A DNA stretch of 64,000 nt from an uncultured Bacilli bacterium (GTDB lineage Bacteria > Bacillota_I > Bacilli_A > RF39 > UBA660): assembly GCA_947623825.1 (NCBI GenBank), contig CANQHQ010000002.1, positions 10,124 to 74,123 of the forward strand, in the 5' to 3' direction. This document shows positions 297 through 25,872 of this stretch, piece after piece. Under the pieces are notes generated by a model. It saw only the letters and a list, made by a program, of their open reading frames with translations. It was not told where the DNA came from and did not search any database. Both the position numbers and the translations under genes were made by a program. Every line of letters starts with the position of its first letter. Positions within the stretch are counted from its first letter, which is position 1.

Positions 297-324
297 GACT
301 TTTTGAGAGAAGTTCATATATACT
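295..324 (+). promoter_or_regulatory. Sigma-A type promoter of the first surface-protein gene: TTGACT, 18-nt spacer, TATACT.
   Basis: TTGACT at 295-300, an 18-nt spacer, then TATACT at 319-324. The same hexamers and spacing recur upstream of the paralog at 13205-13234. Confidence 0.5.
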
Positions 325-435
325 GTAGGCATAGGATAGGAACCGTAAATGCAATTTTTATAAATAGAATACGTGTTTCTTTTTCTTTTTTGGTAAAAAA
401 TAAGGTGCCCTTGTTTTTTAGATGGAGGAAAATTT

Positions 436-3400: not shown

Positions 3401-6342
3401 GCGGATGGAACACAGGTCAAGTAACCAGTATGAGTCAGATGTTTTCTAGCTGTAAATCCTTAACCAGTGTGGGAGATTTAAGTCAATGGGATACGAGTCA
3501 TGTAACCAACATGTGGGAAATGTTTTCTTATTGTAAATCTATCAAATCTTTATCCTTAAGTGGTTGGAAAACAGATCAAGTAACCAGTATGGGTGATATG
3601 TTTGATAATTGTTCATCCTTAATCAGTTTAGATTTAAGCGGTTGGGACACAAGTCATGTAACCGATATGAGTAGTATGTTTATCAGTTGTGGAGCCTTGA
3701 CGAGTTTAGAAGGTATTAGTGATTGGGATACACGCCAGGTGAATAACATGCGCTCTGTTTTTTACGGTTGCCAATCCTTAGTGAAGTTAGATTTAAGTAG
3801 TTGGGATACTAGTGAAGTAACCGCCATGAATGGGATGTTTTCTGGATGTACGTCTTTAGAAAGTATCGGAAATATCGAGAGTTGGGATGTGGGTCGAGTA
3901 ACTGATATGAGTTCCATGTTTTCTGAGTGTCATTTTCTTACTACAACAATTAGTATTTTGAATCCGTTGGTAACTTCTTATTCTAAGATGTTTTATAATG
4001 CAGCGACAACCAATGGTGCCCGAATTATTGTTATTTATTCTAGCGGTTCTCTTGATTTAGTAGAGGAAATGATTGCAACTAAAAATAATGAAAACTCGAA
4101 TGTAATGAAAGGAAACCAACAAGAATATCAAAGTCATTCTATAACAATCCAGGGTAGAAATGACATTGTTTCTTCACAATCATCTGCATTCCCATATGTT
4201 GAAATTAAGTTAACGTCGAATCAGGATCATAAATTGATAACTTCCTTTGAGATGAATGGAACTCCAATGGAAGGAAATACTTTCAAGATGCCGAATAAAG
4301 ATGTGATTATTACCAATGTAACGGTTGTGGATGGATGGGAATCAGAACATAATCCGTATGGTGATAATTTGAATGAGGTCTATGAAGCAACGTTTGAAGG
4401 AGCCGGAAGTTTGACTATTATGTTACACTATTCTACAGATGAAGATTATATCTATCTATATGATCGTACTGGCAAACAATATGGGGAATATGAAGGATGG
4501 ATGAATGCGGGAGACATTATCATTATTCCGGGAGATTACGTAAAACTTAATTTTGTTACCAATGGAAGTTTCAATGAACTTTACGGTTTTCAGGCTATTA
4601 TTACTCCTAATGCACCTCATTCTGTTGAATTAAAATCTCCACCATATGATATTGGTTTGAGTAACGATTCGCCTGTATTAGGGGATACAGTGGAGTTAGT
4701 GTCACCTTCAGAAAATTATGTGGTGACATCGTTTAAAATGAATGGTACTTTGGTAGAGGGAGACTCCTTTGTGATGCCAGACGAGGATGTAGAGATTTCC
4801 GATATTATAGCAGTGAAAGGAAAAATTCTTGAGTCAGAGCATTATCCATATGGTGGTAATTTGAATGAAATCTATGAAGCAACATTGGATGGTGCGGGAA
4901 GTTTGACCGTTACTTTAGATTATCAACTCTATGGTTATGGCGATATTTATGGTGATAGTATTTATTTATATGATAAGTTAGATAACAGATATGATATAGA
5001 TGGAATTCATGACGGAACAAGTAACAGAAAAACGACAACGATCGTTATTCCAGGAGATTATGTAAAATTAAATTTTGTTACAGATGACGATTACAATAGT
5101 TATTATGGCTTTAGGGCAATTGTGATTTATAATGAATCTCATCCTATCACGGTAGAATCTCCACCGTATGATATTGTTGCTAATCAAACCTCGACTGGAT
5201 TAGGAGATACAGTGAAGTTGGTATCGCCATCTGGAAAATATGCCGTAACGTCATTTCGAATGAATGGTACTTTGGTAGAGGGAAATTCCTTTATAATGCC
5301 AGACGAACCGGTAACAATTTCAGATATTGAGGCGTTTGAAGGTGCAATTTTTGAATCGGATCATAATCCGTATAAAAATAATCTCAATGAATCATATGTG
5401 AAAAAATTTGCGGGAGCTTCTTCCTTAACAGTCACTCTAGAATACCAGACGGAAACGGACTTTGACTGGGTTTACTTATATGATAAATCCGGAGTGGAAC
5501 TTGGTAAGTATGGAGGTTCGACAAGAACAACGGAAACCATAGTGATTCCAGGAAACTATGTTAAGATTGTTTTTTATACTGATTCCGCCACGAATGCATA
5601 CTATGGATTTAAAGCGGTTATAACGGTTAATGAACCTCATTCTGTTACCCTAGAATCTTCGGTGTATGATATTGTTGCGAATAAGGAACAGACCTCATTA
5701 AAGGACACAGTAACACTGGTGTCGTCCTCTGGAAATTATAGAGTTGTATCGTTTAAAATGAATGGAAAAGAGATACAAGGAAATACGTTTGAAATGCCGG
5801 ATGAAGAAGCTAAAATTACAGATATTGTCGTAGAAAGTAGACATTCGATTGTGGTTACGGGAAATGAGGATATTGAAGCACATCCAGACTCTGCTTTTGT
5901 AGGAGATACTGTGACGTTATCATCTGTTTCTGGAAATAATCTAGTAACTTCGTTTGACATGAATGGAAGTAAGGTGGAAGGAAATTCCTTTGTGATGCCG
6001 GATGGATCCGTATCCATTTCTAACATTGTGGTAGTACAAGGCTTTGCTTTTGAATCTAGTCATAACTCCTATGACAATAATCTAAACGAAGAGTACGAAA
6101 AGACCTTTGCGGGGGCTACTTCTTTGACTGTTACCTTGGAGTATCAAACCGAAGGTATCAATTGGGATTATATTTGTTTATATGACAGAGTTGGAACAGA
6201 GCTTGGAAAGTACGGAGGACATATGAAGAAAACAGAAACGATAGTGATTCCTGGTGAATATGTGAAGATTTTATTCCATACGGATTCTTCTATCAATGAA
6301 TACTATGGCTTCAAAGCAACTATCGTTCCTAATTATGGATAA
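436..6342 (+). CDS. Giant surface protein of 1968 aa. It has an N-terminal signal-anchor TM, a vWA domain (DVILVLDVSASMSG, a DxSxS MIDAS motif), about 20 WDTSQVTNMSxMFxxC repeats (DUF285/BspA-like LRR) and four C-terminal CUB-like repeats.
   Basis: Long uninterrupted ORF with RBS GGAGG at 425-429. The MIDAS motif, the DUF285 repeat periodicity and the CUB-like repeat pattern (LNExYE..F.GA.SLT..L.YQTE...YLYD..G...G.YG.....TIVIPG.YVKL.F.TD....YGFKA) are read directly from the translation. Confidence 0.9.
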   Translation: MNRFFLKIHKNLKFVSLGLLGFFMICMGLLINSYALSEPVPKISFSSKTLSYEEKEPGSWQVEKSAEWIGLGKARITFQVDTVLKKKNPNTDVILVLDVSASMSGNKLNRVKEDSIDLIDSLLSDPNNHAALISFDTDSKLISDFTNDKDGLIEKVRLLSEEGNTNYYQPLVDADEILKKYQKKEDTDCVLLFLTDGYPNVDVPNQIGEYYYLKTAYPWLNIHGIQYEMGKEILDPIKAISDKQFIADMITLRNALVDASVVPTLYDNFILTDWINNDYFDLKDVLNIQPSFGTVKLEDDNGVPKVTWDLSGLGSGQKVTLTIDVELKDNSYTGSEINPTNKKSNVVSQIEEDEEDTTVTNSPSLKTHYKVIYDGNVPDGCRVDKVPEVKEYAVYETVGKHDDVLTCEGYQFKGWRIATDGVGIINDDYFKMPEKDVTIKAEWGKMGLSKTMDGTVYREIRPIIQKIGVDGYEGELWQYKESITKIVIEGEQTTKDGSTDELTWDISEAKDGSVRGLLIPNPEDPSTYTAYIQGLGGKVIANPNSSYLFGGGDGYSNSFLKLTTIEGLELLNTSQVTNMSHMFYSCEPLISVGNLNGWDTSKVVNMDFMFQGCHSLIDLNFISEWNTSQVTNMSQMFDGCRALTSLEAIREWDTSQVTDMSYMFAYCYALTSLEAISEWDTSQVTNMSNMFYSCDSIESLEGISKWDTRQVLDMSGMFINCSFESLESISGWDTARVTNMSYMFSGCNFIESLESISGWDTSQVTNMQNMFEECGSLTDLEGIKGWNMSHVTNMSYMFSKCYSLFDVDLSNWNTLSAVNMSYLFSNCNFLRNLNLSGLKTGQVTDMRSMFEECKALTSLDLSSWDTSKVANMRYMFSGCNTLTNLDLNGWDTGRVTNMERMFYNCIALISLDLSGWDISSVSDWDFMFSGTTGELIVNNWKVGLSLNEVFYSFKGTEIKGLDTWDTSQVTDMSQMFLFCDSLTSIEGLSGWNTGQVTSMSQMFSSCKSLTSVGDLSQWDTSHVTNMWEMFSYCKSIKSLSLSGWKTDQVTSMGDMFDNCSSLISLDLSGWDTSHVTDMSSMFISCGALTSLEGISDWDTRQVNNMRSVFYGCQSLVKLDLSSWDTSEVTAMNGMFSGCTSLESIGNIESWDVGRVTDMSSMFSECHFLTTTISILNPLVTSYSKMFYNAATTNGARIIVIYSSGSLDLVEEMIATKNNENSNVMKGNQQEYQSHSITIQGRNDIVSSQSSAFPYVEIKLTSNQDHKLITSFEMNGTPMEGNTFKMPNKDVIITNVTVVDGWESEHNPYGDNLNEVYEATFEGAGSLTIMLHYSTDEDYIYLYDRTGKQYGEYEGWMNAGDIIIIPGDYVKLNFVTNGSFNELYGFQAIITPNAPHSVELKSPPYDIGLSNDSPVLGDTVELVSPSENYVVTSFKMNGTLVEGDSFVMPDEDVEISDIIAVKGKILESEHYPYGGNLNEIYEATLDGAGSLTVTLDYQLYGYGDIYGDSIYLYDKLDNRYDIDGIHDGTSNRKTTTIVIPGDYVKLNFVTDDDYNSYYGFRAIVIYNESHPITVESPPYDIVANQTSTGLGDTVKLVSPSGKYAVTSFRMNGTLVEGNSFIMPDEPVTISDIEAFEGAIFESDHNPYKNNLNESYVKKFAGASSLTVTLEYQTETDFDWVYLYDKSGVELGKYGGSTRTTETIVIPGNYVKIVFYTDSATNAYYGFKAVITVNEPHSVTLESSVYDIVANKEQTSLKDTVTLVSSSGNYRVVSFKMNGKEIQGNTFEMPDEEAKITDIVVESRHSIVVTGNEDIEAHPDSAFVGDTVTLSSVSGNNLVTSFDMNGSKVEGNSFVMPDGSVSISNIVVVQGFAFESSHNSYDNNLNEEYEKTFAGATSLTVTLEYQTEGINWDYICLYDRVGTELGKYGGHMKKTETIVIPGEYVKILFHTDSSINEYYGFKATIVPNYG
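2158..4020 (+). repeat. Array of coding repeats, each about 72-75 bp (24-25 aa), inside gene 436-6342. They are DUF285/BspA-like leucine-rich repeats.
   Basis: The motif W[DN]TSQVT[ND]MSxMFxxCxSLxSLEGIS recurs about 20 times with similar codons. Confidence 0.7.
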
Positions 6343-6421: not shown

Positions 6422-7033
6422 ATGAAAAAAATTCCAAAGAAAAATTTAATTATTATCGCAAGTATTTGTTTTGTATGTTCTATTATATTGTTTATTTCAG
6501 CATCTTATTCTTATACGGATGGACAACTTCCTACACCGATTAGTGATGATGGAAATGTCACTTATGAATTATGTAAAAAAGATGGAACTTGTATGCCAGA
6601 AGGAAGAGTTTATGTTGGTAGAGAAGTAGGAAATATTCAAAATCATTTAGATTATACAGCCACTTATGATAGTGAAATTTCTTATGATTACGACTATTAT
6701 GTAAAAGGAAAAATTGTTTATAAAGATGGAAATGGAAATGTCGTTCATGAGGAAGAAGAAATGCTAAATGATAGTCAAAAAGTTACTGGAACTGGTACTT
6801 CTTTTCAAATTCAAAGCGAGGTTACGGTTACTTATTCTGATTATTATGAAAAGGCCAATAATTCTCTTTCCAGTCATGGAGGAGTTACGGCAGACTTAGA
6901 AATTTCCTTGGTTTTGAAAAAACTTGATATGGAAGAAGTGGTGGCGACCGTTCGTTATCCTTTGAAAGAGGATATGTTTACCGTTACGAAAGAAGTTGTT
7001 TCGAGAAGAGTTGGACAGGAAGAAAAGAAATAG
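6422..7033 (+). CDS. Membrane-anchored hypothetical protein of 203 aa, with an N-terminal TM and an extracellular domain.
   Basis: RBS GGAGGTGGAAG then ATG. Hydrophobic N-terminus (IIIASICFVCSIILFISA). No recognisable motif. Confidence 0.65.
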   Translation: MKKIPKKNLIIIASICFVCSIILFISASYSYTDGQLPTPISDDGNVTYELCKKDGTCMPEGRVYVGREVGNIQNHLDYTATYDSEISYDYDYYVKGKIVYKDGNGNVVHEEEEMLNDSQKVTGTGTSFQIQSEVTVTYSDYYEKANNSLSSHGGVTADLEISLVLKKLDMEEVVATVRYPLKEDMFTVTKEVVSRRVGQEEKK

Positions 7034-7066
7034 AAGAAGGAGGAGGAACTCCTTCTTTTCTTTGAA
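7034..7066 (+). terminator. Rho-independent terminator.
   Basis: Stem GAAGAAGGAG / CTCCTTCTTC followed by a T-rich run. Confidence 0.5.
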
Positions 7067-7092
7067 ATCCTACTTGTAACTTTTTCTTTATT

Positions 7093-8037
7093 TTGATATA
7101 TTTATATAGAATAGAAAGGATGATTTCTATGTTTAGTGAAGATCAAGTCTTAGAAAAAGTTTCCAATAAAAAACAAAAACAAATTTTAATCTTTATTATC
7201 GCAATCTGCATCTTTCTTATTGTTGTTTTATTGGTATCTATGTATTTTTATATGGATAATCAACCTTTGATTAGTTTTCCTACTTATCAGTTATCCACAG
7301 AAGAGTGGACAACGGATAATGTGATGATTGAAATTACGAATGATAGTAAGAATATTCAATCTTATTCTTTTGATGGAGGAAAAACTTGGCAAACGAATTC
7401 TACTTATGAAGTAACAGAAAATGGAGAATATGAAATTCAAGTTATGGATATAAAGAATAAGTTAAGTAAGAAGAATCTTGTTGTTGTATCGAATATTGAC
7501 CGTACTCCTCCTACGATGGTGTTTGAAAGTTCTACGACGATACAAATGGGTTCTAATTTTACTCCTTCTTATGGCGTACAAGTATCTGATAAAGAATCGG
7601 GCTTAAGTAATAATTATACAGCAGTTCCTAGTTCGATTGATACCAGTGTCGAAGGAGAATATAAAATTACTTATTCGGCATTCGATCGTGCGGGAAACTT
7701 TGTAGAAAAAGAAAGAACCATTATCGTAAAAGATATTAAAGGTAGAACGTATTATCGTTATCGTGAAGGAACGATTGAGTCTTACGAGTGTGAACCGTAT
7801 CTTTGTCGTTGTGTTTCTTCGAATCTTGCTTCTTCTACAGGAACTTGTCCTACTGGATATACTTTAAATGATGAAGGTCAATGTTGTAACACTTGTTATA
7901 AGACTTGTACGAAAACCAATTGGGGAGAATGGAGTAAGTGGGATCAAAAAAAGGTGACTGCTACTCCTACTCGTGAAGTAGAAAGTATTCTTGTTGAGGA
8001 TGGACAAGAATTAGAAGGGGTGACGGATCAACGATGA
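7093..8037 (+). CDS. Membrane-anchored protein with an Ig-like (DUF5011-like) domain and a C-terminal Cys-rich module that ends in a WGEWSKW tryptophan motif. The start may instead be at 7120 or 7129.
   Basis: TM helix ILIFIIAICIFLIVVLLVSMYF. Segment NIDRTPPTMVFESST..YGVQVSD..SG..NYTA.PSSIDTSVEGEYKITYSAFDRAGN resembles bacterial Ig-like/DUF5011 domains. There are 11 Cys in the last 90 aa. It is paralogous to the next gene. Confidence 0.7.
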   Translation: MIYLYRIERMISMFSEDQVLEKVSNKKQKQILIFIIAICIFLIVVLLVSMYFYMDNQPLISFPTYQLSTEEWTTDNVMIEITNDSKNIQSYSFDGGKTWQTNSTYEVTENGEYEIQVMDIKNKLSKKNLVVVSNIDRTPPTMVFESSTTIQMGSNFTPSYGVQVSDKESGLSNNYTAVPSSIDTSVEGEYKITYSAFDRAGNFVEKERTIIVKDIKGRTYYRYREGTIESYECEPYLCRCVSSNLASSTGTCPTGYTLNDEGQCCNTCYKTCTKTNWGEWSKWDQKKVTATPTREVESILVEDGQELEGVTDQR

Positions 8038-8933
8038 AACAGAAAGTAACGTATCAGGGCCCTATTGATCAATATGGTCGCCCTCTAGAGAATAGGGGAA
8101 ACAAGAATGGCTTGGGAGAGAATCAGAGATTAGGAACCATGATCTTCACTGCTTTGGGTATCGCTCTTATTCTTATTGTAATTGGTTTATTTGTTTATAA
8201 TTATATTTCTCAGAATCGTTTGGAGATTCCAACGGCTTCTCTTTCTACGACAGAATGGACCAATGAGTCAGTGACAGTCACTGTAGATCAAAGTCGTGGA
8301 AAAGGAAACGAATATTCTTTTGATGATGGAAAAACTTGGCAAACGCAAAATACGTTTGTGGTAGATGAAAATCAAGAATTGGTGTTACGAGTACGTAATT
8401 CCAAAGGAAAAGTAAGTAAGCCAGCGACGGTTATTGTTTCAAATATTGATAAAGAGGATCCAGAACTTTATTTTATTTCTCCTTATTATATACAGGTAGG
8501 TTCTACCTTTGATGGAAAATTGAATGTTTCTGCAGATGATTTAGGTTCTGGTATTGAAACCTATACGATTGATACTTCTCGTTTGGATATGAATGTCCCA
8601 GGTACGTATGAAGTTTCTTATCTTCTTACGGATTTGGTTGGTAATACAACAAAGAAGGTCCGTACGGTTGTCGTTCATGAGGGTGAAAAGAATTATTTTT
8701 ATCGTTCTCGTTCTGTAGAATTTGGAGAATCCGATTGTCCTTATGAATGTGAATGTGTTCCTCCTACAGATGGGCTTTGTCCCGCAGGAAAACACGTTTC
8801 AGAAGATAAGACGCAATGTTGTGAAACTTGTACGGAAAAGTGTGAACAATTTACATATGGAAATTGGTCAGAATGGAGTAGTGTACGAATGATTCCATCT
8901 AGTCAATTAGAAGTAGAAATGCGTATGGAATAG
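8034..8933 (+). CDS. Paralog of the preceding gene: TM anchor, Ig-like (DUF5011-like) domain and a Cys-rich C-terminal module with a GNWSEWS motif.
   Basis: ATG overlaps the upstream stop (ATGA). Shares FDDGKTWQT, a VSNID..PP motif and the CP..C.C...C......CC.TC..C cysteine pattern with 7093-8037. Confidence 0.7.
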   Translation: MKQKVTYQGPIDQYGRPLENRGNKNGLGENQRLGTMIFTALGIALILIVIGLFVYNYISQNRLEIPTASLSTTEWTNESVTVTVDQSRGKGNEYSFDDGKTWQTQNTFVVDENQELVLRVRNSKGKVSKPATVIVSNIDKEDPELYFISPYYIQVGSTFDGKLNVSADDLGSGIETYTIDTSRLDMNVPGTYEVSYLLTDLVGNTTKKVRTVVVHEGEKNYFYRSRSVEFGESDCPYECECVPPTDGLCPAGKHVSEDKTQCCETCTEKCEQFTYGNWSEWSSVRMIPSSQLEVEMRME

Positions 8934-8975
8934 GGGTAATCCCTTTTTCTTTTTTTTGGTAGAAAGGAGGATTCT

Positions 8976-11327
8976 ATGGACGAGTACCGGAAAGTAATGC
9001 GAATTCGTTATCATCAAAAACTTTTTGATGTTTATGTCGACGATAGGCATCGTAAGACTTTTTTAGAAGTTCGAGACGATGAAAATTTCTGTCGAAGTCT
9101 TTATCCCTATTTGGATGATTATCTTTCATTGTACGTGAAAATGAATTTTCCTTCTCATATTCTTTATTCCAAAAAATTTCGCTTTCCTAAAAAAGTCTTT
9201 TTTCGAGAAGAAAAGAAACCTACACTACGAAAAGTGGCCGGAACTTTGGGAATGGTTTTATCTTTTGAAATTTTAGGAGCGATTCTCTGTCTCAATCCTA
9301 AATTTCAAAAAAGTATGATGTCTTTTGGAACGGTTTCTTCGTTGGATGAGGAAATAGATAGGGAAATTTCTTATGATACATATGATGGTTCTATTTTTCA
9401 TATCGATGAAATCGCTTCTCTTTCTGAATTTGGAATGGAACCGGTTTCTTTTTATGAAGTACGAAAGACATTAGAAGAAAATATCAACCTTTCTCCTCGT
9501 TTTAAGGAGGAAGCCCGTCTTTTCCTTGATCGATTAGAAGAACGATTCCCACAAGTGGATCTTCGTATTTTGAATCAAAATTTAAAAAAGATGTACGATG
9601 AAATCAATCCATCTTATCCATTGAAAAGAGGAGATGGATTGATGACTGGTTCGTTTTCTCCTTCCTTGGGAAAAGTTTCTTTAGAAGAAAATTATTCTGA
9701 AATGACTGCTTTTCATGAATTGTGTCACGCCTTAAATTCTTTTATTGGAGAAATTTCTTCTTCTAGTTCTTCGGATACGTATCAGATTCATTACTTTTTC
9801 CGAAAAGATTCCTATGGAGAAAGTTTTGTGGAAAGTATGAATACGATTTTAGCGGATTATCTTTTAGCGGAAGATTGGAAGAATTATTTTACTCCTACGG
9901 AAAGAACGTATTCTTCTTATCGTAGTATTTCTTATGAAACGTATCAATTATTGAAACTATTAAAAGGGTATTCTCTTACGGATTTTGTGAATCGAAATGT
10001 GTCTTACTTCGAAGAACAATTGAAAAAAGTTCATTTAGAAGAATATATCGATTATTTAGATACTTTTTATCGTGCGGAATATACCGATATGGAAGTAGTG
10101 GATACGAAGGATTCTTTGAAAGAGGAGTTACAGCATTCTCTTTTAAAGCAAAGAATTCTTGAAGAATGTGGTGATACCGTTACGCCAACGATGGTTTATC
10201 GAATGGCAGGAGCGATTCATCTATGTGAAGACCAAAAACTTGATATTTGTAATGAAATATTAGAGGAGGATGGGCAGGTTTGGTTATTCCGAACGCCTTC
10301 TTCGCCTTTTTATGATGAGGATTCCGATTCTTATGCTTATATTTATCAGGGGGAAGAAAAGATTTTTCAAGGAAAACAGAATGATATTTATATTTACAAA
10401 AGTGTAGAAGAGAATCATACGGTTTTTCATATGGCTTATTATGAGAATGAACAAAGAAAATATTATGATTTGGTAGAAAAAAAAGAGATTGATTTTCCTT
10501 CTTCGATTCTCTATCCGATTCCGTTAAATTCCGTTTGTGGATGGTTCCATATCGATGATTCTCATTTGGATTTTAGTATGGATGTGTTAAAGGAACCTTC
10601 TTTTATCAGTTATTTGAATTCTGAAACGAGAGAGGTACGGTTATATAATCAGGATTCTTTATTGTCACGAGAAAAAGTTGATTCTTTGTATTGGTATAAA
10701 AATTTTGATTCCAAGATGCCGTATTCTTTGACTTCCTATGATTCTTTGAATGATCTTTATTGTGATTATTTTACGAAGAAACCCATTGATTATAAAAAAC
10801 TAGGACCAGTTCGTTCTTTTTGGAATACGATTTATCAGTATACAAATTTTACTTTTGAAGAAGAGGGTACTTTTTCTTCTAGTGACTCGTCTAAAACTTT
10901 AATTCAAAAAGAAAAAAACAGTTACGATTTACGAGTAGATATTCAATTATTACAGGATGTGTCTTTTCTTCATTTTTTGGATCAATGTGCCCCTATTTCG
11001 ATTAATTTTTACGATGGAAAAGAAGTCAAATACTGTTTTGATATCAATCAGATTTTCTTGTATGATGCGTCTTTACAAGGACCATCTCAAATTCGATTTG
11101 GATACTACGATTATGAATCTACTTCTGATGTTGATTTTCTAACTGGAAAACCAGTCGATGTCGATTGCCTTGGTTCCATTAAATATTTTAATGAAATCGT
11201 CGATGCAGGTAGCGAAGATTTAGAGTTTGATTTATCTTCTCTTTCGCAATATCCATTATTGGAATATTACCATTCTTCGGTAGAGGATTTTTCTCTTTCT
11301 ATTCCTAAGATCAAACAAAAAGATTAG
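8976..11327 (+). CDS. Membrane-anchored 783-aa protein with an HExxH motif (FHELCH). It is a putative zinc metallopeptidase-like protein of an unrecognised family.
   Basis: RBS AGGAGG before ATG. Single TM at about aa 88-106 (VAGTLGMVLSFEILGAILCL). HELCH is encoded at 9714-9728. Confidence 0.7.
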   Translation: MDEYRKVMRIRYHQKLFDVYVDDRHRKTFLEVRDDENFCRSLYPYLDDYLSLYVKMNFPSHILYSKKFRFPKKVFFREEKKPTLRKVAGTLGMVLSFEILGAILCLNPKFQKSMMSFGTVSSLDEEIDREISYDTYDGSIFHIDEIASLSEFGMEPVSFYEVRKTLEENINLSPRFKEEARLFLDRLEERFPQVDLRILNQNLKKMYDEINPSYPLKRGDGLMTGSFSPSLGKVSLEENYSEMTAFHELCHALNSFIGEISSSSSSDTYQIHYFFRKDSYGESFVESMNTILADYLLAEDWKNYFTPTERTYSSYRSISYETYQLLKLLKGYSLTDFVNRNVSYFEEQLKKVHLEEYIDYLDTFYRAEYTDMEVVDTKDSLKEELQHSLLKQRILEECGDTVTPTMVYRMAGAIHLCEDQKLDICNEILEEDGQVWLFRTPSSPFYDEDSDSYAYIYQGEEKIFQGKQNDIYIYKSVEENHTVFHMAYYENEQRKYYDLVEKKEIDFPSSILYPIPLNSVCGWFHIDDSHLDFSMDVLKEPSFISYLNSETREVRLYNQDSLLSREKVDSLYWYKNFDSKMPYSLTSYDSLNDLYCDYFTKKPIDYKKLGPVRSFWNTIYQYTNFTFEEEGTFSSSDSSKTLIQKEKNSYDLRVDIQLLQDVSFLHFLDQCAPISINFYDGKEVKYCFDINQIFLYDASLQGPSQIRFGYYDYESTSDVDFLTGKPVDVDCLGSIKYFNEIVDAGSEDLEFDLSSLSQYPLLEYYHSSVEDFSLSIPKIKQKD

Positions 11328-11368: not shown

Positions 11369-13051
11369 TTATTTTTTTATATCGATGATGACAGGAAGAA
11401 TAATTGGTCTTCGACCGGTGACCTCTTCCGTAAAGTTGATTAGTTCACTGATTAATTTACTTTTTAGTTCATTGATTTCGTCTTTTGTATTCGTTAGGAA
11501 ATCGTTGATGATTTCGGTAGCGGTTGTTTCAATTTGTTTAATTAATTCTTCGTTTTCGTTTACCAAAATAAATCCTCTCGTTGTAATATTTGGTTTAATG
11601 AGTAATTTTCTTTTTGAAAAATCAATATTTGCGATGACAACAAGGATTCCATCGTTAGACATCATCTTTCGATCACGAATGACAACGCCACCTACTTCTC
11701 CAATTCGATTTCCATCGACGTAGACATCTTCTCCTGATACTTTTTCTCTCGACTTGGTAATGACATGATCTTTTAATGTTAAGACATCTCCATTTTCGAG
11801 AACAAAAGTATTTTCTTTCGGAATTCCACAATCAATGGCGATATTGGCATGTTTTTTCAACATCCGGTAGTCTCCATGGAACGGCATCACATATTTTGGC
11901 ATAATCAGACGAATCATGAGTTTTAGTTCTTCTTCATTCGCATGCCCTGAAGTATGCAAATCCCCATCAAATGTACTATTTGTGAATACTTGAATTCCTT
12001 TTAAATATAATTTGTTGATTGTTTTGGCAATCGATAAGGCGTTTCCTGGAATAGGGGAAGAAGAGAAAATCACAATATCATCTGGTCTAAGTGATACTTG
12101 TTTGTGTGTTCCATCTGCAATTCTAGATAAAGCAGCCAAAGGTTCTCCTTGGGAACCGGTACATAAAACAGTAACTTCTCCTGGTTTCAATGTATTGGCT
12201 ACTTCTGGAGTGATGATTAATTCTTTATGATTGATATATCCTCCATTAATTGAAATTTGGATGTTGTTTTCCATACTTCTTCCGAAAATACAAATTTTAC
12301 GATTGTGTTTGTAACAAGTTTCAAAAATGTGTTTTAGGCGATAAATATTAGAGGCGAATGTGGCAATAATGATTCGACGATTTGGATACTGATTAAAAAT
12401 ATCCATCATTGTATCATCGACTTTGGATTCGCTAATCGACATTCCTTCATTGAGGGCATTGGTCGAGTCACTAATTAATAAATCTACTCCTCTTTTTCCT
12501 AACTCAGCCATTTTATGTAAATCAGCCATCGGTCCAATCGGAGTCAAATCAAATTTAAAGTCTCCGGTTGTGACAACACTTCCATTTGGTGTTTTTAGAT
12601 ATACACCATGAGAGTCTGGAATCGAGTGAGTGGTTCTAAAAAATTCAATTTCAAAATTCTTTAATTTAATTTTTGTTTTATCATCATACGCATAAAGATG
12701 GTCATAACGAATATTTCGGTCTTCTAATTTTAAAGCAATTAATTCCTTTGCTTGATTTGGTGCGTAAATCGCAGGGATTTCCACTGTTTGAAGTAAAAAA
12801 GGAATACTTCCGATATGATCTTCGTGACCGTGCGTAATGATTAAACATTTTATTTTGGATTGATTTTCTTTTAAAAAGGTAAAATCCGGTAGAACATAGT
12901 CAATTCCTAATAGTTCTCCTTCTGGGAAACTAATTCCCGCATCGATAATAACAATTTCGTCTCCATGCATTAAACAATACATGTTTTTTCCAACTTCGCC
13001 TAAACCACCTAAAACAATAATCTTTGTTTCAATTGGTTTATTAAACTTCAT
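11369..13051 (-). CDS. rnj: Ribonuclease J (metallo-beta-lactamase/beta-CASP RNase).
   Basis: Motif IITHGHEDHIGSIPFLL. 560 aa, which fits RNase J length. Conserved N-terminus MKFNKP..TKIIVLGGLGEVGKNMY. Confidence 0.9.
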   Translation of the reverse strand: MKFNKPIETKIIVLGGLGEVGKNMYCLMHGDEIVIIDAGISFPEGELLGIDYVLPDFTFLKENQSKIKCLIITHGHEDHIGSIPFLLQTVEIPAIYAPNQAKELIALKLEDRNIRYDHLYAYDDKTKIKLKNFEIEFFRTTHSIPDSHGVYLKTPNGSVVTTGDFKFDLTPIGPMADLHKMAELGKRGVDLLISDSTNALNEGMSISESKVDDTMMDIFNQYPNRRIIIATFASNIYRLKHIFETCYKHNRKICIFGRSMENNIQISINGGYINHKELIITPEVANTLKPGEVTVLCTGSQGEPLAALSRIADGTHKQVSLRPDDIVIFSSSPIPGNALSIAKTINKLYLKGIQVFTNSTFDGDLHTSGHANEEELKLMIRLIMPKYVMPFHGDYRMLKKHANIAIDCGIPKENTFVLENGDVLTLKDHVITKSREKVSGEDVYVDGNRIGEVGGVVIRDRKMMSNDGILVVIANIDFSKRKLLIKPNITTRGFILVNENEELIKQIETTATEIINDFLTNTKDEINELKSKLISELINFTEEVTGRRPIILPVIIDIKK

Positions 13052-13204
13052 AAAGTCTCCTTTCGTTTTCTATTTTTTTTGGGTCGGAAAGAACTAACCG
13101 ATATGATTATACTAAAAAATAGAGAATTTGTCTATTCTTTTCCTATGTTAATTCCTATTTGACATGATTTATCTTACTCCGCTTGCACCGTGATAAACTC
13201 TATG

Positions 13205-13234
13205 TTGACTTTTCAAGGCGGGGGGGGGTATACT
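13205..13234 (+). promoter_or_regulatory. Promoter of the paralogous surface-protein gene: TTGACT, an 18-nt spacer containing a G9 homopolymer, then TATACT.
   Basis: TTGACT at 13205-13210, spacer tttcaaggcGGGGGGGGG, TATACT at 13229-13234. Same hexamers and spacing as the promoter at 295-324, but with the poly-G inserted. Confidence 0.55.
13220..13228 (+). repeat. Homopolymeric G9 tract inside the promoter spacer.
   Basis: Nine consecutive G directly visible. This is extremely unusual in a sequence of about 33% GC. Confidence 0.9.
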
Positions 13235-13354
13235 AAGAATAGGAGAAAACTAGGAACCGTAAAGGATGGAAGATTTGTATATTTTCTCCTGAGCGTGTTC
13301 CTTTTTTGTAGAAAAAAATGCTCCTTGTTTTTATAATGGAAGGAAGAATGTTGA

Positions 13355-16297
13355 ATGAAAAAAACGTTTCTTTGGATTCATAAAAGAATTGGAGTTCTTA
13401 CGATTGGTTTATTGGCTGTTTTCATGATTGGAATAGGGCTTTTGATGAATTCTTATGCCTTAAATGAACCTGTACCCAAGATTATTTTTTCATCCCAAAC
13501 GTTAAGTTATGAAGAGAATGATTCAGGAAGTTGGAAAGTTGACAAGAGTGCCGAATGGATTGGCGAAGGAAAAGCGAGAATTACCTTTCAAGTTGATACG
13601 GTTTTAAGAACAGGAAATCCAAATACAGATGTCATTTTAGTTCTTGATATTTCAGGGTCTATGTCGGGAAATAAATTAGAGCGCGTGAAACAGGATTCTA
13701 TCAATTTATTAGATTCCTTATTATCGAATCCTAATAATCAAGCAGCATTGATTACATTCGATACAGGATCAGTATTGGTATCGGATTTTACTAATGATAA
13801 GGACAGTTTAATAGGAGAGATAAATCATTTAGAAGCTATAGGAACTACTAATTATTATCAACCGCTTGTCCATGTAGATGAGATTTTAAAAGACTATTCC
13901 AAGAAAGAAGATACAGAGTGTGTTGTTTTATTCTTAACGGATGGATATCCGAATGAGGATATTCCGAATCAGATAGGAGAATACAAATATTTAAAAAGTG
14001 AATATTCATGGTTAAATATTCATGGAGTACAGTACGAAATGGGAGAAGAGGTTCTAGATCCTATCAAAAAAGTTAGTGATAAGCAATTTATTGCGGATAT
14101 GACTACGTTGAACAATGTCTTGTTTGATGCTTCTGTTCTACCTATTCCTTATGACAAGTTTATATTAACGGATTGGATTCATAATGAATATTTTGATTTA
14201 AAGGAGATTTCGAATATCCAACCTTCTTTTGGGGAAGTAAAGTTGGAAGATGATAACGGAGTACCCAAAGTGACATGGGATTTAAGCGGTTTAGTGGCAG
14301 GACAAGGTGCCACGTTAACGATAGATATTGATTTAAAAGGAGATTCTTACACAGGAAGTGAAATTAATCCAACCAACAAGAGTAGTGAAGTGGTTTCTCA
14401 AATAGATGGGGATAAAGAAGATGTTACAACAAAGGAAAGTCCTAGTTTAAAAACACATTATAAAGTGATTTACGATGGAAATGCCCCAAGTGGATGTAGT
14501 GTAGGTGAGGTACCTGAAGCAAAAGATTATGCTGTATACGAAACAGTCGGAAAAAGTGATGCAGTTCCTATTTGTGAAGGTTATCAATTTAAAGGATGGG
14601 AAATTGTAACAGAAGAAGTGAAACAACTGAATGGTGACTATTTTCAAATGCCTGAGAAAGATGTAACATTACGAGCAGAATGGGGAAGAATGGGATTATC
14701 GAAGTCTGTGGAAGGAGAAGTTTATGTCCAAAAAGATCCAATTCTTCAAAAAATAGATTCTGATAGTTATAATAAAGAACTTTGGAAATATAAAAATTCT
14801 ATTACGAAGATAGTCTTTGAAGGGGAACAGACGTCAAAAACAGGTTCTACAGAGGAACTTACTTGGGATATTTCAGAAGCAAAAGATTGGTCGGTACGAG
14901 GATTATTGGTACCGAATTCAGATGATTCTTCGACTTATACTGCCTATATTCAAGGCTTGGAAGGAAGAGTGATTGCGAACTCAGATAGTTCTTACTTATT
15001 TGGTAGCAAAAGTTCTTCTACGTCATTTACAAAGTTAACGGCAATTGAGGGACTAAAGTTATTGGATACAAGTCAAGTAACCGATATGGCTTTTATGTTT
15101 TGCCATTGTGAATCCTTAACCAGTGTTGGAAATATAAGTGGCTGGGACGTGAGACAAGTAACCGATATGGCTTATATGTTTAGTTATTGTTATGCCTTAA
15201 CCAGTTTAGATTTAAGTGGCTGGAACACAAGTCGAGTAAAAGGTATGAGTTATATGTTTATGTATTGTAAAGTCTTAACCAGTGTTGGAGGTATAAGTGG
15301 CTGGGACACACGTCAAGTAACTGCTATGTATTTTTTGTTTGATGGTTGTAGCGCCTTAAAAAGTTTAGATTTAAGTGGTTGGAATACAAGTCTAGTAACC
15401 AATATGGGTGGTATGTTTTCCAGTTGTTCATCCTTAACTAGTGTAGGAGATTTAAGTGGTTGGGAAACCGGCCAAGTAACCAATATGAGTTTTATGTTTG
15501 ATGATTGTGAAGTCTTAACCAGTGTAGGAGATATAAGTGCCTGGGACACACGTCGAGTAACCAATATGAGTTCTATGTTTACTCGGTGTTACGTTTTAAC
15601 TACAACGATTAGTATTTTAAGTAATTCGGTGGCTAGTTATGATTTGATGTTCTATTCTGCTGCTACTAAAAATAATGCCAAGATTACCGTTAATTATTCT
15701 AGTGAATCAGAAGCATTAGTGAATCAAATGATTGCAACAAAGTCTGATGGTTGTAATGTGGTAAAAGCAAGTAGTCCGTATGTGGCACATTCCGTAACGA
15801 TTCAAGGTAGAAATGACATTATTGCGACTCCATCAAATGGAATGATGTTTACCAGAATTACGTTAACTCCAATCAATGAGGATTATATGGTTACTTCATT
15901 TGAAATGAATGGAACGAAAATAGAAGGTAATACCTTTGTTATGCCGAATGGGAATGCCATGATTACGAATGTAACTACTGGAGTGGGAACAGTGTTTGAG
16001 TCTAACCATAATCCATATGATAATAACCTAGATGATGAGTATGAACATACCTTTGAAGGCGCTACTTCTTTGACCGTTACGTTGGAGTATCAAACGGAAG
16101 AACCGGATGAATCGATGTATGATTGGATTGCCTTGTATGATAGAACTGGAAAAGAGTATGGTAAATATGGAAGAGAAACAAAAACAACAGAAACCATCGT
16201 CATCTCAGGAGATTACGTTAAACTTTTATTTCATACGGATGAGTTTGTAGATGGTTACTATGGATTCAAAGCCACTGTGGTCCCAAATTATGAATAA
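13355..16297 (+). CDS. Paralogous surface protein of 980 aa: signal anchor, vWA (DVILVLDISGSMSG), about 7 DUF285-type repeats and one C-terminal CUB-like domain.
   Basis: N-terminal 560 aa is about 75% identical to gene 436-6342. Same repeat motif WDTRQVTxMxxMF. C-terminus YGFKATVVPNYE matches the C-terminus of the first paralog. Confidence 0.9.
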   Translation: MKKTFLWIHKRIGVLTIGLLAVFMIGIGLLMNSYALNEPVPKIIFSSQTLSYEENDSGSWKVDKSAEWIGEGKARITFQVDTVLRTGNPNTDVILVLDISGSMSGNKLERVKQDSINLLDSLLSNPNNQAALITFDTGSVLVSDFTNDKDSLIGEINHLEAIGTTNYYQPLVHVDEILKDYSKKEDTECVVLFLTDGYPNEDIPNQIGEYKYLKSEYSWLNIHGVQYEMGEEVLDPIKKVSDKQFIADMTTLNNVLFDASVLPIPYDKFILTDWIHNEYFDLKEISNIQPSFGEVKLEDDNGVPKVTWDLSGLVAGQGATLTIDIDLKGDSYTGSEINPTNKSSEVVSQIDGDKEDVTTKESPSLKTHYKVIYDGNAPSGCSVGEVPEAKDYAVYETVGKSDAVPICEGYQFKGWEIVTEEVKQLNGDYFQMPEKDVTLRAEWGRMGLSKSVEGEVYVQKDPILQKIDSDSYNKELWKYKNSITKIVFEGEQTSKTGSTEELTWDISEAKDWSVRGLLVPNSDDSSTYTAYIQGLEGRVIANSDSSYLFGSKSSSTSFTKLTAIEGLKLLDTSQVTDMAFMFCHCESLTSVGNISGWDVRQVTDMAYMFSYCYALTSLDLSGWNTSRVKGMSYMFMYCKVLTSVGGISGWDTRQVTAMYFLFDGCSALKSLDLSGWNTSLVTNMGGMFSSCSSLTSVGDLSGWETGQVTNMSFMFDDCEVLTSVGDISAWDTRRVTNMSSMFTRCYVLTTTISILSNSVASYDLMFYSAATKNNAKITVNYSSESEALVNQMIATKSDGCNVVKASSPYVAHSVTIQGRNDIIATPSNGMMFTRITLTPINEDYMVTSFEMNGTKIEGNTFVMPNGNAMITNVTTGVGTVFESNHNPYDNNLDDEYEHTFEGATSLTVTLEYQTEEPDESMYDWIALYDRTGKEYGKYGRETKTTETIVISGDYVKLLFHTDEFVDGYYGFKATVVPNYE

Positions 16298-16298
16298 A

Positions 16299-16342
16299 AA
16301 AGAAGATGATTTTACTTGGATTTCATCTTCTTTCTTTTTTTT
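16299..16342 (+). terminator. Rho-independent terminator.
   Basis: Stem AAGAAGATGA / TCATCTTCTT with a 13-nt loop, followed by a T-rich tract. Confidence 0.6.
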
Positions 16343-16441
16343 CTTGTGGAATGAATTGATAAAATTCGCAGAAAATTCCTTTGGAAAGACTAGGAAATCC
16401 TCTTTTTTTTTGGTATACTTATCTATGATACAGGAGGATTT

Positions 16442-17853: not shown

Positions 17854-19704
17854 ATGTTTGAGAAAATCACATTTATTTCTGATAGTGGGGCTAATATTAA
17901 GATACGTGAAGGTGGAGAAGTGGTCGAAGACTTAATGAATCTCCATGTATTGTTTGAAGATTCAGATAAAAAGGTCGTTGCGGAAATTGAAAATATTAAT
18001 GATGGGATTGTCGGAACGAAATTTTTAGGTGAGATTGCTAATGGAAAGTTTGTGACCGGTATTATTCGAAAACCAGGACTCAATTCTACAGTACGGATTA
18101 TTACGCGAGAAGAGTTTGCGATGCTTGTGACACAAGATAGTGAAGAAGCTATTTTACTTGGGTATAGTCCTTTGTATAATAATTATCCTATTCGGGTAAA
18201 TGTCAACGATTTATTTAGTAACCACTTAGCGATTTTTGGAAATACCGGTAGTGGAAAAAGTTGTGGCGTTGCTAGTATTCTACAAAATTTATTTAATTGT
18301 CCAGGTTTTTTACCTTATAATGCCAACTTTATTATTTTTGATTCTACTGGTGAATATAAAAATGCTTTTTCTAAGATTAATACAGTCGATCCCAATTATC
18401 GGTATAACCTTTATTCTACTTCCGATGAAATCACGGATAAGGCTGAAAAACTACGTATTCCTTTATGGCTTTTGACGGTAGATGATTTTGCTTTGCTTTT
18501 ATCCGCCACTTCTCATACGCAAATTCCGATTATTGAACGAATGATTCAATTAGTGAATATTTTTCAATCTCCGGATATCAATGTGGAGGCTTTTAAAGAC
18601 CATTTGATTGCCAAAGCGATTATGAGTATTCTTTATTCCAACGAAACTTCCGCTAAAAAGAGGGATGATATTTTTTCTATTCTTATTTCTTGTTCGACCC
18701 ATAACTTTAGTTTAGAGTCAGAAATTATGGGAGTTGGATATAGTCGGAAATTCCGTGAATGCTTTGTCATCGATTCCTTAGGACAGTTTGCTGAAAGTGT
18801 GTTAATTACGAAGTATGTGGCTGATTTTATTAATGAAGATTTTGACGATTTGGTTATTACGAAGACAAATTATTTTACACTTGAAGATTTGGAAGTTGCG
18901 TTGAACTTTACATTAATTAGTGAGGGTTGGCTAAAGAATGAGAAAACTTATGGAGACGCTGTAACATTAAAAGTACGCTTACATACGTTGATTATTGGTG
19001 GATACTCTCGTTTCTTCAAACTCGATCGTTTTATTGACAAAAGAACGTATTTACATGACTTGTTATTTGACAATAATGGACGTAAATACCAAGTTATTAA
19101 CTTCAATTTGGAAGATGTCGATGATAATTTTGCGAAAGTACTGGCTAAGATTTTTTCTCGTATCGTATTTGATTTCGCTAAGAAATTGGAACAGAGGGCT
19201 TCCGTTCCGTTTAATATTATTTTGGAAGAAGCCCATCGATATATTCAAAATGATAATGACCAATTCCTCTTAGGATATAATATTTTTGATCGAATTTCTA
19301 AGGAAGGTCGTAAATATGGAGTCATGTTGACCTTAATTTCTCAAAGACCGGTAGAAATTAGTGATACGGTGATTTCTCAATGTAGTAATTTCTTAATTTT
19401 TAAAATGAATCACCCACGAGATGTGGATTATATTAAAAAGATGGTTCCCAATATTAATTCGGAAATTGTCGATAAACAAAAAGTGTTACAAGTAGGGCAC
19501 TGTGTCGGATTTGGACAAGCCTTTAAGGTTCCAACTATTATTCGGATGCAGTTACCGAATCCTTTACCACAAAGTACCAATGCCGATGTTTATGCTCGTT
19601 GGACCTATCGGCATAAACAGCAGGAAGAGGAACATCCTGGACAAAATCCTCTTCCTAATTTAAATATGCGTCCAGAAAATGCGGATTTAGCCAATCATTC
19701 TTAA
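17854..19704 (+). CDS. HerA/FtsK-superfamily P-loop ATPase (DUF87-like) of 616 aa, with an N-terminal HAS-barrel-like domain.
   Basis: Walker A IFGNTGSGKSCGV, Walker B-like ILEEAHRY and LISQRP...ISQCSNFLIFK, which corresponds to the HerA TQRP/arginine-finger region. RBS GGGGAAGG. Confidence 0.8.
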   Translation: MFEKITFISDSGANIKIREGGEVVEDLMNLHVLFEDSDKKVVAEIENINDGIVGTKFLGEIANGKFVTGIIRKPGLNSTVRIITREEFAMLVTQDSEEAILLGYSPLYNNYPIRVNVNDLFSNHLAIFGNTGSGKSCGVASILQNLFNCPGFLPYNANFIIFDSTGEYKNAFSKINTVDPNYRYNLYSTSDEITDKAEKLRIPLWLLTVDDFALLLSATSHTQIPIIERMIQLVNIFQSPDINVEAFKDHLIAKAIMSILYSNETSAKKRDDIFSILISCSTHNFSLESEIMGVGYSRKFRECFVIDSLGQFAESVLITKYVADFINEDFDDLVITKTNYFTLEDLEVALNFTLISEGWLKNEKTYGDAVTLKVRLHTLIIGGYSRFFKLDRFIDKRTYLHDLLFDNNGRKYQVINFNLEDVDDNFAKVLAKIFSRIVFDFAKKLEQRASVPFNIILEEAHRYIQNDNDQFLLGYNIFDRISKEGRKYGVMLTLISQRPVEISDTVISQCSNFLIFKMNHPRDVDYIKKMVPNINSEIVDKQKVLQVGHCVGFGQAFKVPTIIRMQLPNPLPQSTNADVYARWTYRHKQQEEEHPGQNPLPNLNMRPENADLANHS

Positions 19705-19719
19705 AGGAAGTGTATTGTT

Positions 19720-21474
19720 ATGTTTAGTAAGATTTTATATATTGGAGAACATGATGCTCAAATTCAATTGAAGGAAGATGCTTCTCTTGAAACCGATATC
19801 ATGAATATGCCACTTATTTTACAAGATAATGAAAAAACGATTTTGGCAGAAGTAAAGGATTTGTTGGATGGTTCTGTAAAAGTGAAACTTCTAGGAGAAA
19901 TCGAAGATGGAAAATTTGTCGGGGGAGTTCTTCGAAAACCAAGTTTAAATGCGGCTATTCGTCCTTTATCTGTCGAAGAGTTGACGTTGATTGTAGGAAC
20001 ACCGGCTTTTGGCTTTATGGAACTTGGAACGAGTCCGTTTTACTCTAATAAAAAAGTTTATGCGGATATGAATGAACTCTTTAGTTCTCATATGTGTATT
20101 TTTGGAAATACTGGTAGTGGAAAAAGTTGTGGAGTGGCTCGATTGATTCAAAATATTTTTTATAATCCACAATTTGTTCCCTATCGTTCGAATTTTTTGA
20201 TTTTTGATTCTTCGGGAGAGTACTATACGGCTTTTTCTAAAATGAATGAAATTAATCCGAATTATCATTATCGTTTTTTAACGACCAATGTAAATAGTAC
20301 CCATGAAGGGGAAATTCTTAATATTCCGATTTGGTTATTGAATGTCGAAGATATTGCCCTTTTGTTATCCGCTAAAACACATACGCAGTTATCTATCATT
20401 GAAAAAATGATGAAATTGGTGAAAATCTTTTCTCAATCTAGTTCGGATGCGACACAGTATAAAAATCATTTGATTGCGACGGCCATTATGACAATTATGT
20501 ATTCGAATCAAGGTTCTGCGAGTAAGAGAGATGAAATCTTTTCCATTTTGAATACTTGTCCTACGAATGAGTTTAATCTCAATGCCCCTGTGCAAGGAAT
20601 TGGGTATACGAGAAGATTACAGGAGTGCTTTTTAATTGATTCTTCTGATCAGTTTTCGGAACGTGTTTTATTAACAGAATATGTGAATCAATATATTGAT
20701 CCGGATTTAAATCAATATGAACCAAAAGAAGTTCAGTATTTCACTTTGGAAGATATGGAAAAAGCATTGAACTTTGCCTTGATTAGTGAAGGATGGTTAC
20801 GAAACGAAAATGTTTATGCTGATGCTGTATCTTTAAAGGTAAAATTACATGAACTTGTCATTGGTTCTTATGCAAAATATTTTAATTATAAACAATTTAT
20901 TTCTCTCGAACAGTACCTTAGCGGGTTGGTGATTCGGGATGGAAAGAAATATCAGATTGTAAATATTAATTTAGAGGATGTCGATGATGGGTTTGCGAAG
21001 TCGATTGTTAAGATTTTTACAAGATTGATTTTTGAAGTTTCTAGAAAGGTACAGAGGGGGAGTTTTCCATTTAATATTCTGTTAGAGGAAGCCCATCGTT
21101 ATGTTCAAAAAGATCAGGATGACTTCTTGTTCGGTTACAATATTTTTGATCGAGTTGCGAAAGAGGGAAGAAAGTATGGAGTCATTATGTCACTTATTTC
21201 TCAGAGACCAGTTGATTTAAGTGAAACGGTGATTTCTCAATGTAGTAATTTCTTTATTTTTAAGATGAGTCACCCTAGAGATATTGAGTATATTACGAAA
21301 ATGATTCCGAATATTACGGAAGATACGATTGAAAAGCAGAAATCTCTTCAAGTTGGAAATTGTCTTGCTTTTGGAGGTGCTTTTAAGATTCCTATTATTG
21401 TCAAATTGGATATGCCAAATCCGATGCCACAAAGTAGTAGTTGTAATGTTGTTGTTACTTGGACCAGTCATTAG
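19720..21474 (+). CDS. Second HerA/FtsK-superfamily P-loop ATPase of 584 aa, a tandem paralog of the previous gene.
   Basis: Walker A IFGNTGSGKSCGV, LLEEAHRY and LISQRP..SETVISQCSNFFIFK. Roughly 50% identical to the upstream gene over its full length. Confidence 0.8.
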   Translation: MFSKILYIGEHDAQIQLKEDASLETDIMNMPLILQDNEKTILAEVKDLLDGSVKVKLLGEIEDGKFVGGVLRKPSLNAAIRPLSVEELTLIVGTPAFGFMELGTSPFYSNKKVYADMNELFSSHMCIFGNTGSGKSCGVARLIQNIFYNPQFVPYRSNFLIFDSSGEYYTAFSKMNEINPNYHYRFLTTNVNSTHEGEILNIPIWLLNVEDIALLLSAKTHTQLSIIEKMMKLVKIFSQSSSDATQYKNHLIATAIMTIMYSNQGSASKRDEIFSILNTCPTNEFNLNAPVQGIGYTRRLQECFLIDSSDQFSERVLLTEYVNQYIDPDLNQYEPKEVQYFTLEDMEKALNFALISEGWLRNENVYADAVSLKVKLHELVIGSYAKYFNYKQFISLEQYLSGLVIRDGKKYQIVNINLEDVDDGFAKSIVKIFTRLIFEVSRKVQRGSFPFNILLEEAHRYVQKDQDDFLFGYNIFDRVAKEGRKYGVIMSLISQRPVDLSETVISQCSNFFIFKMSHPRDIEYITKMIPNITEDTIEKQKSLQVGNCLAFGGAFKIPIIVKLDMPNPMPQSSSCNVVVTWTSH

Positions 21475-21477
21475 GAG

Positions 21478-25684: not shown

Positions 25685-25691
25685 AAAAATT

Positions 25692-25742
25692 ATCATCCTA
25701 TAAATTGAAATTAAAATTTTAATATAGGATGATTTTTATTTT
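25692..25742 (+). terminator. Rho-independent terminator after the Fic gene.
   Basis: Perfect 11-bp inverted repeat ATCATCCTATA / TATAGGATGAT with a 20-nt loop, followed by TTTTATTTT. Confidence 0.55.
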
Positions 25743-25800
25743 ATTAAAATTGTAGTATTTCTTATGTTACTTCTTAATATCAATCTAGAAATTAGGATGA

Positions 25801-25872
25801 ATTTCGTAAGTACGAAATAAGAATGGTGTATACACGTGCCCTTATTATATAAGAAGAACGTGGATACACCAT
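25801..25872. repeat. Two adjacent palindromic elements: the perfect palindrome ATTTCGTAagTACGAAAT, and the imperfect inverted repeat ATGGTGTATACACG ... CGTGGATACACCAT.
   Basis: Directly visible between the Fic gene and the recombinase gene. Candidate recombinase or regulator binding sites. Confidence 0.5.

Follow-up and report, generated by a model that had tools for sequence, protein, structure and literature searches.

A run of nine guanines (G9) in the promoter spacer of a gene for a VWA and PARCEL/DUF285 surface protein probably (at roughly 0.62, as judged from sequence comparison) acts as a slippage-prone dial on the expression of that protein. The run was located in the window, i.e., the whole 64-kb stretch of DNA analyzed here (34.7% GC), within a promoter whose hexamers matched the consensus at 10 of 12 positions in a promoter scan (TTGACT-18-TATACT at 13205-13234), exactly the sequence that an earlier, sequence-only reading had described. 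The G9 makes up the 3' half of the 18-nt spacer, next to the -10 hexamer, and the distance from the promoter to the 980-aa gene that it is proposed to serve is 120 nt. The elements of this promoter region, together with the divergent promoter beside it and the paralogous promoter used for comparison, were as follows.

Positions 13205-13210, forward strand: -35 hexamer TTGACT, found by consensus promoter scan; the same hexamer occurs at 295-300 and in loci L094 and L095.
Positions 13211-13228, forward strand: spacer, tttcaaggc then GGGGGGGGG (the G9), 18 nt and of equal length in all three paralogs.
Positions 13220-13228, forward strand: G9 homopolymer adjoining the -10 hexamer, the proposed slippage-prone tract, from the run count and the comparison with contig L002.
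Positions 13229-13234, forward strand: -10 hexamer TATACT, found by promoter scan and kept in all three paralogs.
Positions 13106-13134, reverse strand: candidate promoter of the divergent RNase J gene (TAGACA-17-TATAAT), found by promoter scan.
Positions 295-324, forward strand: comparator promoter, TTGACT-18-TATACT lacking poly-G, which precedes the 1,968-aa gene at 436-6342.

The tract stands out against its genomic background. No other G run in the window reaches 8, and C runs of 6 or more are absent from all 64 kb. Runs of at least 9 G are expected 0.04 times per window under an independent-base model and 0.06 times under a first-order Markov model, which bears out the earlier view that such a run is unlikely by chance. 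The second-longest G run in the window is a G7 at 29210-29216 (forward strand), which belongs to the final codons of a RecX-like gene (28474-29226) and is closely followed by an overlapping ORF of 100 aa; it is probably insignificant. A pattern search for TTGACT-N18-TATACT with at most one mismatch returned two matches in the window only, and these were the promoters of the two paralogs. Other candidates near the surface-protein gene fared less well: (i) a second promoter at 13309-13337 (TAGAAA-17-TATAAT) was rejected because its -10 is not kept in the paralog at 436 and its transcript would start within the Shine-Dalgarno sequence, and (ii) TTGACA at 13158-13163, taken as a -35, had no -10 partner 16-19 nt away. 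The candidate RNase J promoter lies ~70 nt from the -35 of the surface-protein gene and ~85 nt from the G tract, and it is probably unaffected by the latter.

In the mechanism that we propose, the G9 would be a hypermutable simple-sequence repeat placed in the spacer of a sigma-A-type promoter. Slipped-strand mispairing during replication would add or remove G residues; each such change would shift the distance between the -35 and -10 hexamers by 1 bp and rotate the two by ~34 degrees relative to each other, and RNA polymerase binding and promoter strength would change stepwise as the spacer passed through 16, 17, 18, 19 nt and so on. A population would then hold cells with high, low, or no expression of the poly-G paralog, while the two paralogs without a tract would remain normally regulated. 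Given the 18-nt spacer common to all paralogs, G9 and probably G8 are expected to be expressed, and G10 or longer and G7 or shorter would be weak or off. Tracts of ~7 to 8 or more units are long enough to slip, a length reached by the G9 of the window and by the related tracts described below (G13 in contig L002 and G11 in contig L011). The sequences themselves show where the tract sits, that the promoter is conserved, that a low-coverage contig of a second sample differs within the tract, and that the arrangement recurs independently in relatives; the transcription start, the length dependence of expression, the switching rate (which mismatch repair would set), and reversibility are the parts of this scheme that we infer.

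The gene under this promoter had been described as giant; it encodes a protein of 980 aa, and the giant of the pair is the 1,968-aa paralog at 436-6342. The gene and its transcribed flanks were as follows.

Positions 13241-13354, forward strand: predicted 5' leader of 114 nt, from a presumed transcription start at ~13241.
Positions 13355-16297, forward strand: gene for the 980-aa surface protein, from ORF and domain searches.
Positions 16299-16343, forward strand: intrinsic terminator with an 11-bp stem and then a U-rich tail (fold of -13.1 kcal/mol, z = -3.3).

The 980-aa protein runs from an N-terminal signal/anchor through a VWA domain, an InlB-type B-repeat, and PARCEL/DUF285 leucine-rich repeats (PF03382, E = 4.8e-47; TIGR02167, E = 8e-52) to a C-terminal domain, and is probably an adhesin. 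Its N terminus, MKKTFLWIHKRIGVLTIGLLAVFMIGIGLLMNSYALNEP, contains a hydrophobic segment and no Cys; neither a lipobox nor an LPXTG motif was found in the protein, and the signal of the Mollicute variable lipoproteins is absent from it (no lipobox Cys). Since the terminator directly follows the gene, the latter is probably monocistronic; the long loop and low GC content of this terminator had caused a pattern scan to miss it.

A leader of ~110 nt is kept in all three paralogs (window 13241-13354, window 331-435, and L094 1296-1415). In the window copy, a 5' hairpin was predicted to form between GGAGAAAA and UUUUCUCC, followed by a second hairpin in which the pyrimidine stretch UUCCUUUUUU pairs with the Shine-Dalgarno sequence GGAAGGAAG (13338-13346); the fold has a z of about -2.2 to -2.3, and an analogous fold was predicted for the leader of the paralog at 436. 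From these models, the leader may constitute an extra layer of translational control, e.g., thermometer-like or factor-dependent, and such control may dominate expression of the 980-aa gene. An Rfam scan of 13150-13420 by E value gave chance-level snoRNA and lncRNA matches only, and no riboswitch or known leader RNA was identified there; a scan of the whole window at the gathering threshold found OLE (ornate large extremophilic) RNA alone. The latter is full length and lies at 59466-60055 on the forward strand (RF01071, 370 bits, E = 3e-105). Directly downstream of it is a 198-aa ORF (60065-60661) with no Pfam match, which we presume, by its position, could be the OLE-associated protein OapA.

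The genomic surroundings bear on the identity of the host. The window is read with genetic code 11 and includes genes for an LtaS-like sulfatase, an LCP protein, a PASTA kinase, and a glucosaminidase, along with ffh, ligA, pcrA, and gatAB; from the first four, the host appears to be a walled Firmicute. Relatives retrieved from public data were labeled as uncultured Bacilli MAGs, several of them from gut metagenomes. The RNase J gene (11369-13051, reverse strand) is divergent from the surface-protein gene, and ftsY lies downstream of the latter. Farther along the forward strand, between ftsY/ylxM and ffh (17854-22995), two tandem genes for HerA-like (DUF87) ATPases precede a gene for a DUF5684 membrane protein. 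Between ffh and recX (24920-27868, forward strand), a Fic/DOC-family gene (24920-25684) and a gene for a large serine recombinase (26303-27868) may together mark a small integrated element.

Evidence for the promoter itself came from its paralogs. The 980-aa protein is 67% identical to the 1,968-aa paralog over the first 757 residues, and the promoter of that paralog, as the sequence-only reading had noted and the sequence confirmed, has equal hexamers and spacing and no poly-G. Four more genes follow this paralog on the same strand (6422-11327, forward), two of which encode proteins with Ig-like surface domains (7093-8037 and 8034-8933), next to proteins of 203 and 783 aa without a Pfam match; together, these look like a surface-protein operon. 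A third paralog, represented by loci L094 and L095 (P0001 and P0002), was recovered from the same ENA sample series; it lies downstream of dnaG-sigA-trmK, and its promoter is TTGACT-ttctaagatggaggagag-TATACT, again with an 18-nt spacer and then a very similar leader. When the three promoters were aligned, the hexamers and the 18-nt spacing were invariant and the spacer sequence diverged; poly-G was present in one of the three, the copy at 13205-13234. This conservation footprint across three copies is good evidence that the TTGACT and TATACT hexamers are functional. In BLAST comparisons of the L094 and L095 contigs with the window, homology began precisely with the first base of the -35 (13205), and the duplicated unit was therefore promoter, leader, and gene together.

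The same alignment speaks to the origin of the tract. The sequence-only reading had taken the G9 for an inserted element; all three paralogs share a spacer length of 18 nt, and the G tract shares its alignment columns with GATGGAGGAGAG of the closest paralog (78% identical in protein). Because these columns match and the spacer length is unchanged, the comparison indicates that the tract arose in place by substitutions, mainly A to G, in a purine-rich spacer, and that nothing was inserted. By the same comparison, 18 nt is the native spacing of the TTGACT/TATACT promoter family, and in the wider family of homologous genes, spacers of 17 and 18 nt were about equally frequent among recognizable promoters. 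The spacing reported earlier was thus correct at 18 nt, yet its description as one off the optimal 17 was not, since 18 nt is native to this family. The G9 reproduces the ancestral 18-nt geometry and so is probably an expressed state and not an off-optimum one.

Variation at the tract could be viewed in a second sample. Strains were compared through exact-protein look-ups with RNase J, the 980-aa protein, FtsY, the 783-aa protein, and P0129, among which the 980-aa protein itself returned no record. One other public contig spans the tract: L002, from sample ERZ27249187, with a coverage of ~2.9x. Across 4,495 nt, this single ~2.9x contig differs from the window by one substitution and one inserted G, both of which fall in the tract. 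Together these turn GGCG9 into G13 and give a spacer of 19 nt, homopolymer length and C/G calls being error-prone at ~2.9x. A further contig of that sample, L003, agrees with the window across 5,616 nt except at 1 position. A tract that is the sole variable site between near-identical flanks is the pattern predicted for a hypermutable repeat, seen here in one contig at ~2.9x; given that single contig and its low coverage, a homopolymer assembly error in L002 is possible. The spacers observed for tract-bearing promoters were 18 nt (window), 19 nt (L002), and 19 nt (L011, below), none of them the textbook 17 nt.

Few public contigs span the tract, probably because contigs break at the paralogous repeat. 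L001 and L099 stop at window position 13175, 30 nt short of the -35, and L002 itself stops at window position 13355, the start codon of the 980-aa gene; these low-coverage contigs of the same strain probably break through assembly collapse at the repeated promoter, leader, and gene. L097 stops within rnj. In a sister species (L100, with an RNase J 90% identical), the divergent surface-protein gene is absent, and there is therefore no orthologous promoter for comparison.

To place the tract in a wider family, ~70 homologous genes with their upstream DNA were collected with an N-terminal profile from a scan of species-representative genomes and a scan of metagenomes. Poly-G was found in 2 of the ~70 promoters, and most had no repeat of any kind; poly-G is not general to the homolog family. 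Poly-A/T tracts, considered as alternative switches, were rejected, since they amounted to a single T9 among the ~70 upstream regions. The second poly-G case lies on MAG contig CANOBK010000001.1 (L011), which carries two tandem homologs, the first encoding 1,157 aa with ~42% identity to the window protein. The promoter of this first gene reads as follows.

L011 positions 2325-2330, TTGACA; then aaaactgt and G11 (2339-2349); then TATAAT (2350-2355): perfect hexamers with a spacer of 19 nt.

The G11 adjoins the -10 hexamer, as the G9 of the window does. L011 gene 2 and L096, the latter a 57% relative of L011 gene 1, both have TTGACA-18-TATAAT without the tract, i.e., they are likewise spaced at 18 nt; the relatives of L011 gene 1 at 79 to 81% lie on contigs of ~1 kb without upstream DNA. 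A neighbor-joining tree grouped the three window-type paralogs as one clade, apart from another formed by L011 gene 1, L011 gene 2, and L096. Because the nearest relatives lack the tract in both clades, the comparison indicates at least two independent origins of poly-G, both at the same promoter position. Across ~408 kb of related low-GC loci, G or C runs of 7 or more were promoter tracts exclusively.

A third clade carries a different repeat at this place. In VWA-PARCEL homologs on QWCB01 metagenome contigs, (TA)9 (L037, 2378-2395) and (TA)10 (L049, 2437-2456) lead directly into a TATACT box that lies ~25 nt before the ribosome-binding site; in L048, a sister gene to these two, the repeat is absent. 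With TTTACC taken as a weak -35, the spacer would be 17 nt at one unit more in L037 or one unit fewer in L049. We offer only tentatively the broader reading of these cases, namely, that promoter repeats (poly-G in two clades and (TA)n in a third) are convergent in the VWA-PARCEL family of uncultured walled gut Bacilli, and that these commensals run combinatorial surface variation in the style of Mycoplasma and Neisseria by slippage of individual paralogs.

The distribution of the tract also weighs on the alternative that survives best, in which the G9 is a mutational accident of a purine-rich spacer: it would perhaps slip but have no selected regulatory role, the leader or other regulators would set expression, and changes in length would be neutral or mildly deleterious. 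Few A-to-G transitions would make the tract from the GATGGAGGAGAG that occupies the same columns of the closest paralog, poly-G is confined to just 2 of ~70 homolog promoters, and the leader is conserved and, by prediction, structured, all of which an accident would accommodate. We nonetheless consider it unlikely, as another clade has independently acquired this rare feature at the same position of the promoter, such G/C runs are absent from ~400 kb of surrounding low-GC DNA, TA repeats sit at the same place in a third clade, and a 1-bp change in spacer length is expected, on established knowledge, to alter the activity of sigma-70/sigma-A promoters.

It is improbable that the tract works by DNA structure or by binding a protein and not by spacing, e.g., by forming a G-rich structure, by serving as a site for a regulator, or by supplying a partial extended -10 with a G at -14. 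G at -13 to -15 partly fits the TGn motif of an extended -10, and that half of the spacer is purine- or G-rich in all three paralogs; however, the paralog at 295-324 has gttcata adjoining its -10, which makes G-richness dispensable. A canonical intramolecular quadruplex needs at least four G runs, which a lone G9 cannot supply: the forward strand has GG-C-G9 alone, with no further G runs nearby. Tract lengths of 9, 11, and 13 at a constant position also suit a length-variable element better. A sequencing or assembly artifact is very improbable, for although two-color Illumina instruments do produce poly-G calls and contigs of other samples break nearby (L001 30 nt before the -35, L002 at the start codon), artifactual poly-G occurs at read or contig ends, whereas this tract lies inside a 64-kb contig, between correct and conserved flanks on both sides, recurs at the same place in an independent assembly (L002), and has its architecture repeated in an unrelated MAG (L011).

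A slippage-prone promoter spacer therefore remains our preferred reading. The sequence-only reading had likewise proposed a poly-G slippage switch for a surface protein, and this is partly supported by the comparison of sequences (conservation of the paralog promoters, the tract difference in L002, and the recurrence in L011): its core idea is supported at the level of sequence, and four of its subsidiary claims call for correction or adjustment.

Slippage of this kind is best known from pathogens. In Neisseria meningitidis, porA has poly-G between -35 and -10 and the opc and fetA promoters have poly-C; in the porA-type spacer mechanism, 1-bp slippage yields graded high, intermediate, or no expression. 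The window shares with these loci a homopolymeric G/C tract in the core promoter of a surface-protein gene. They belong, however, to a Gram-negative pathogen and encode outer-membrane proteins, whereas the host here is a walled, low-GC, uncultured member of the gut Bacilli and the VWA-PARCEL protein is known from sequence alone. In Mycoplasma hyorhinis, the promoter spacer of vlp contains poly-A. As in loci of the porA and vlp type, the tract of the window lies between -35 and -10 at the level of sequence, its transcription start being predicted. Of the Neisseria genes that the sequence-only reading had cited for poly-G or poly-C spacers, porA is apt, with its G repeat, and nadA is not, as it has TAAA repeats upstream of its promoter (PMC7371114).

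The vlp genes and the Vmm and Vmc genes of M. mycoides and M. capricolum resemble the window in having a simple repeat in the -35/-10 region of surface-protein genes, in belonging to low-GC Firmicute relatives, and in forming multigene families, whose copies switch independently in the mycoplasmas; poly-TA tracts are found in the Vmm/lipoprotein promoters of the latter (PMC3053259). The (TA)9 and (TA)10 promoters of L037 and L049 closely resemble those of Vmm and Vmc. Differences are also evident: (i) only one of three paralogs has a tract here, and (ii) the vlp, Vmm, and Vmc products are lipoproteins of wall-less Mollicutes under A or TA repeats, whereas here the repeat is of G and the protein has no lipobox.

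Protein family and repeat are likewise linked in M. capricolum, where homopolymeric or dinucleotide tracts lie 5' of PARCEL/DUF285 genes (PMC2996958); its PARCEL proteins (Kid) share with the window gene both the TIGR02167/PF03382 repeats and the 5' tracts. The window gene thus combines two features of the Mollicute genes with 5' VNTRs: its product has PARCEL repeats, and its promoter carries a simple repeat. In M. agalactiae, poly-G of up to G13 occurs upstream of the spma surface-protein genes, which was noted there as unusual in a low-GC genome and of unknown function, and the spma family is distinct from the DUF285 proteins (PMC2824730). Compared with these Mollicute PARCEL and spma genes, the tract of the window sits precisely in a consensus -35/-10 spacer, the host is walled, and the protein has an N-terminal VWA domain. 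The earlier remark that such a tract is unusual for a low-GC Gram-positive consequently applies to walled Firmicutes but not to Mollicutes (PMC2996958, PMC3053259, PMC2824730).

Slippage has also been described within coding sequence, as in the BspA-like proteins of “Ca. Mycoplasma girerdii,” which vary via intragenic CA repeats (PMC5476646), and in pilus genes of Bifidobacterium breve, which reportedly switch by repeat slippage (PMC9187656). Both concern surface proteins of host-associated organisms, with slippage detected from metagenome or deep-sequencing reads. Their repeats are coding and cause ON/OFF frameshifts, whereas the repeat here is in a promoter spacer.

Slippage-based contingency promoters are textbook knowledge in a few pathogens (Neisseria, Haemophilus, and mycoplasmas); to our knowledge, there is hardly any record of them in walled commensal gut Firmicutes, and a search of open-access text found no direct precedent, in Firmicutes or other Gram-positives with a wall, for a promoter-spacer switch made of poly-G. 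As the mechanism is known and a link between PARCEL genes and upstream repeats has been noted in Mollicutes, the value of the present case is that of an extension of known biology. If the tract switches, uncultured gut Bacilli would diversify their display of adhesins stochastically, with a bearing on colonization, immune (IgA) evasion, and phage receptor variation, and the distribution of tract lengths would provide a simple, metagenome-readable marker of expression states in vivo.
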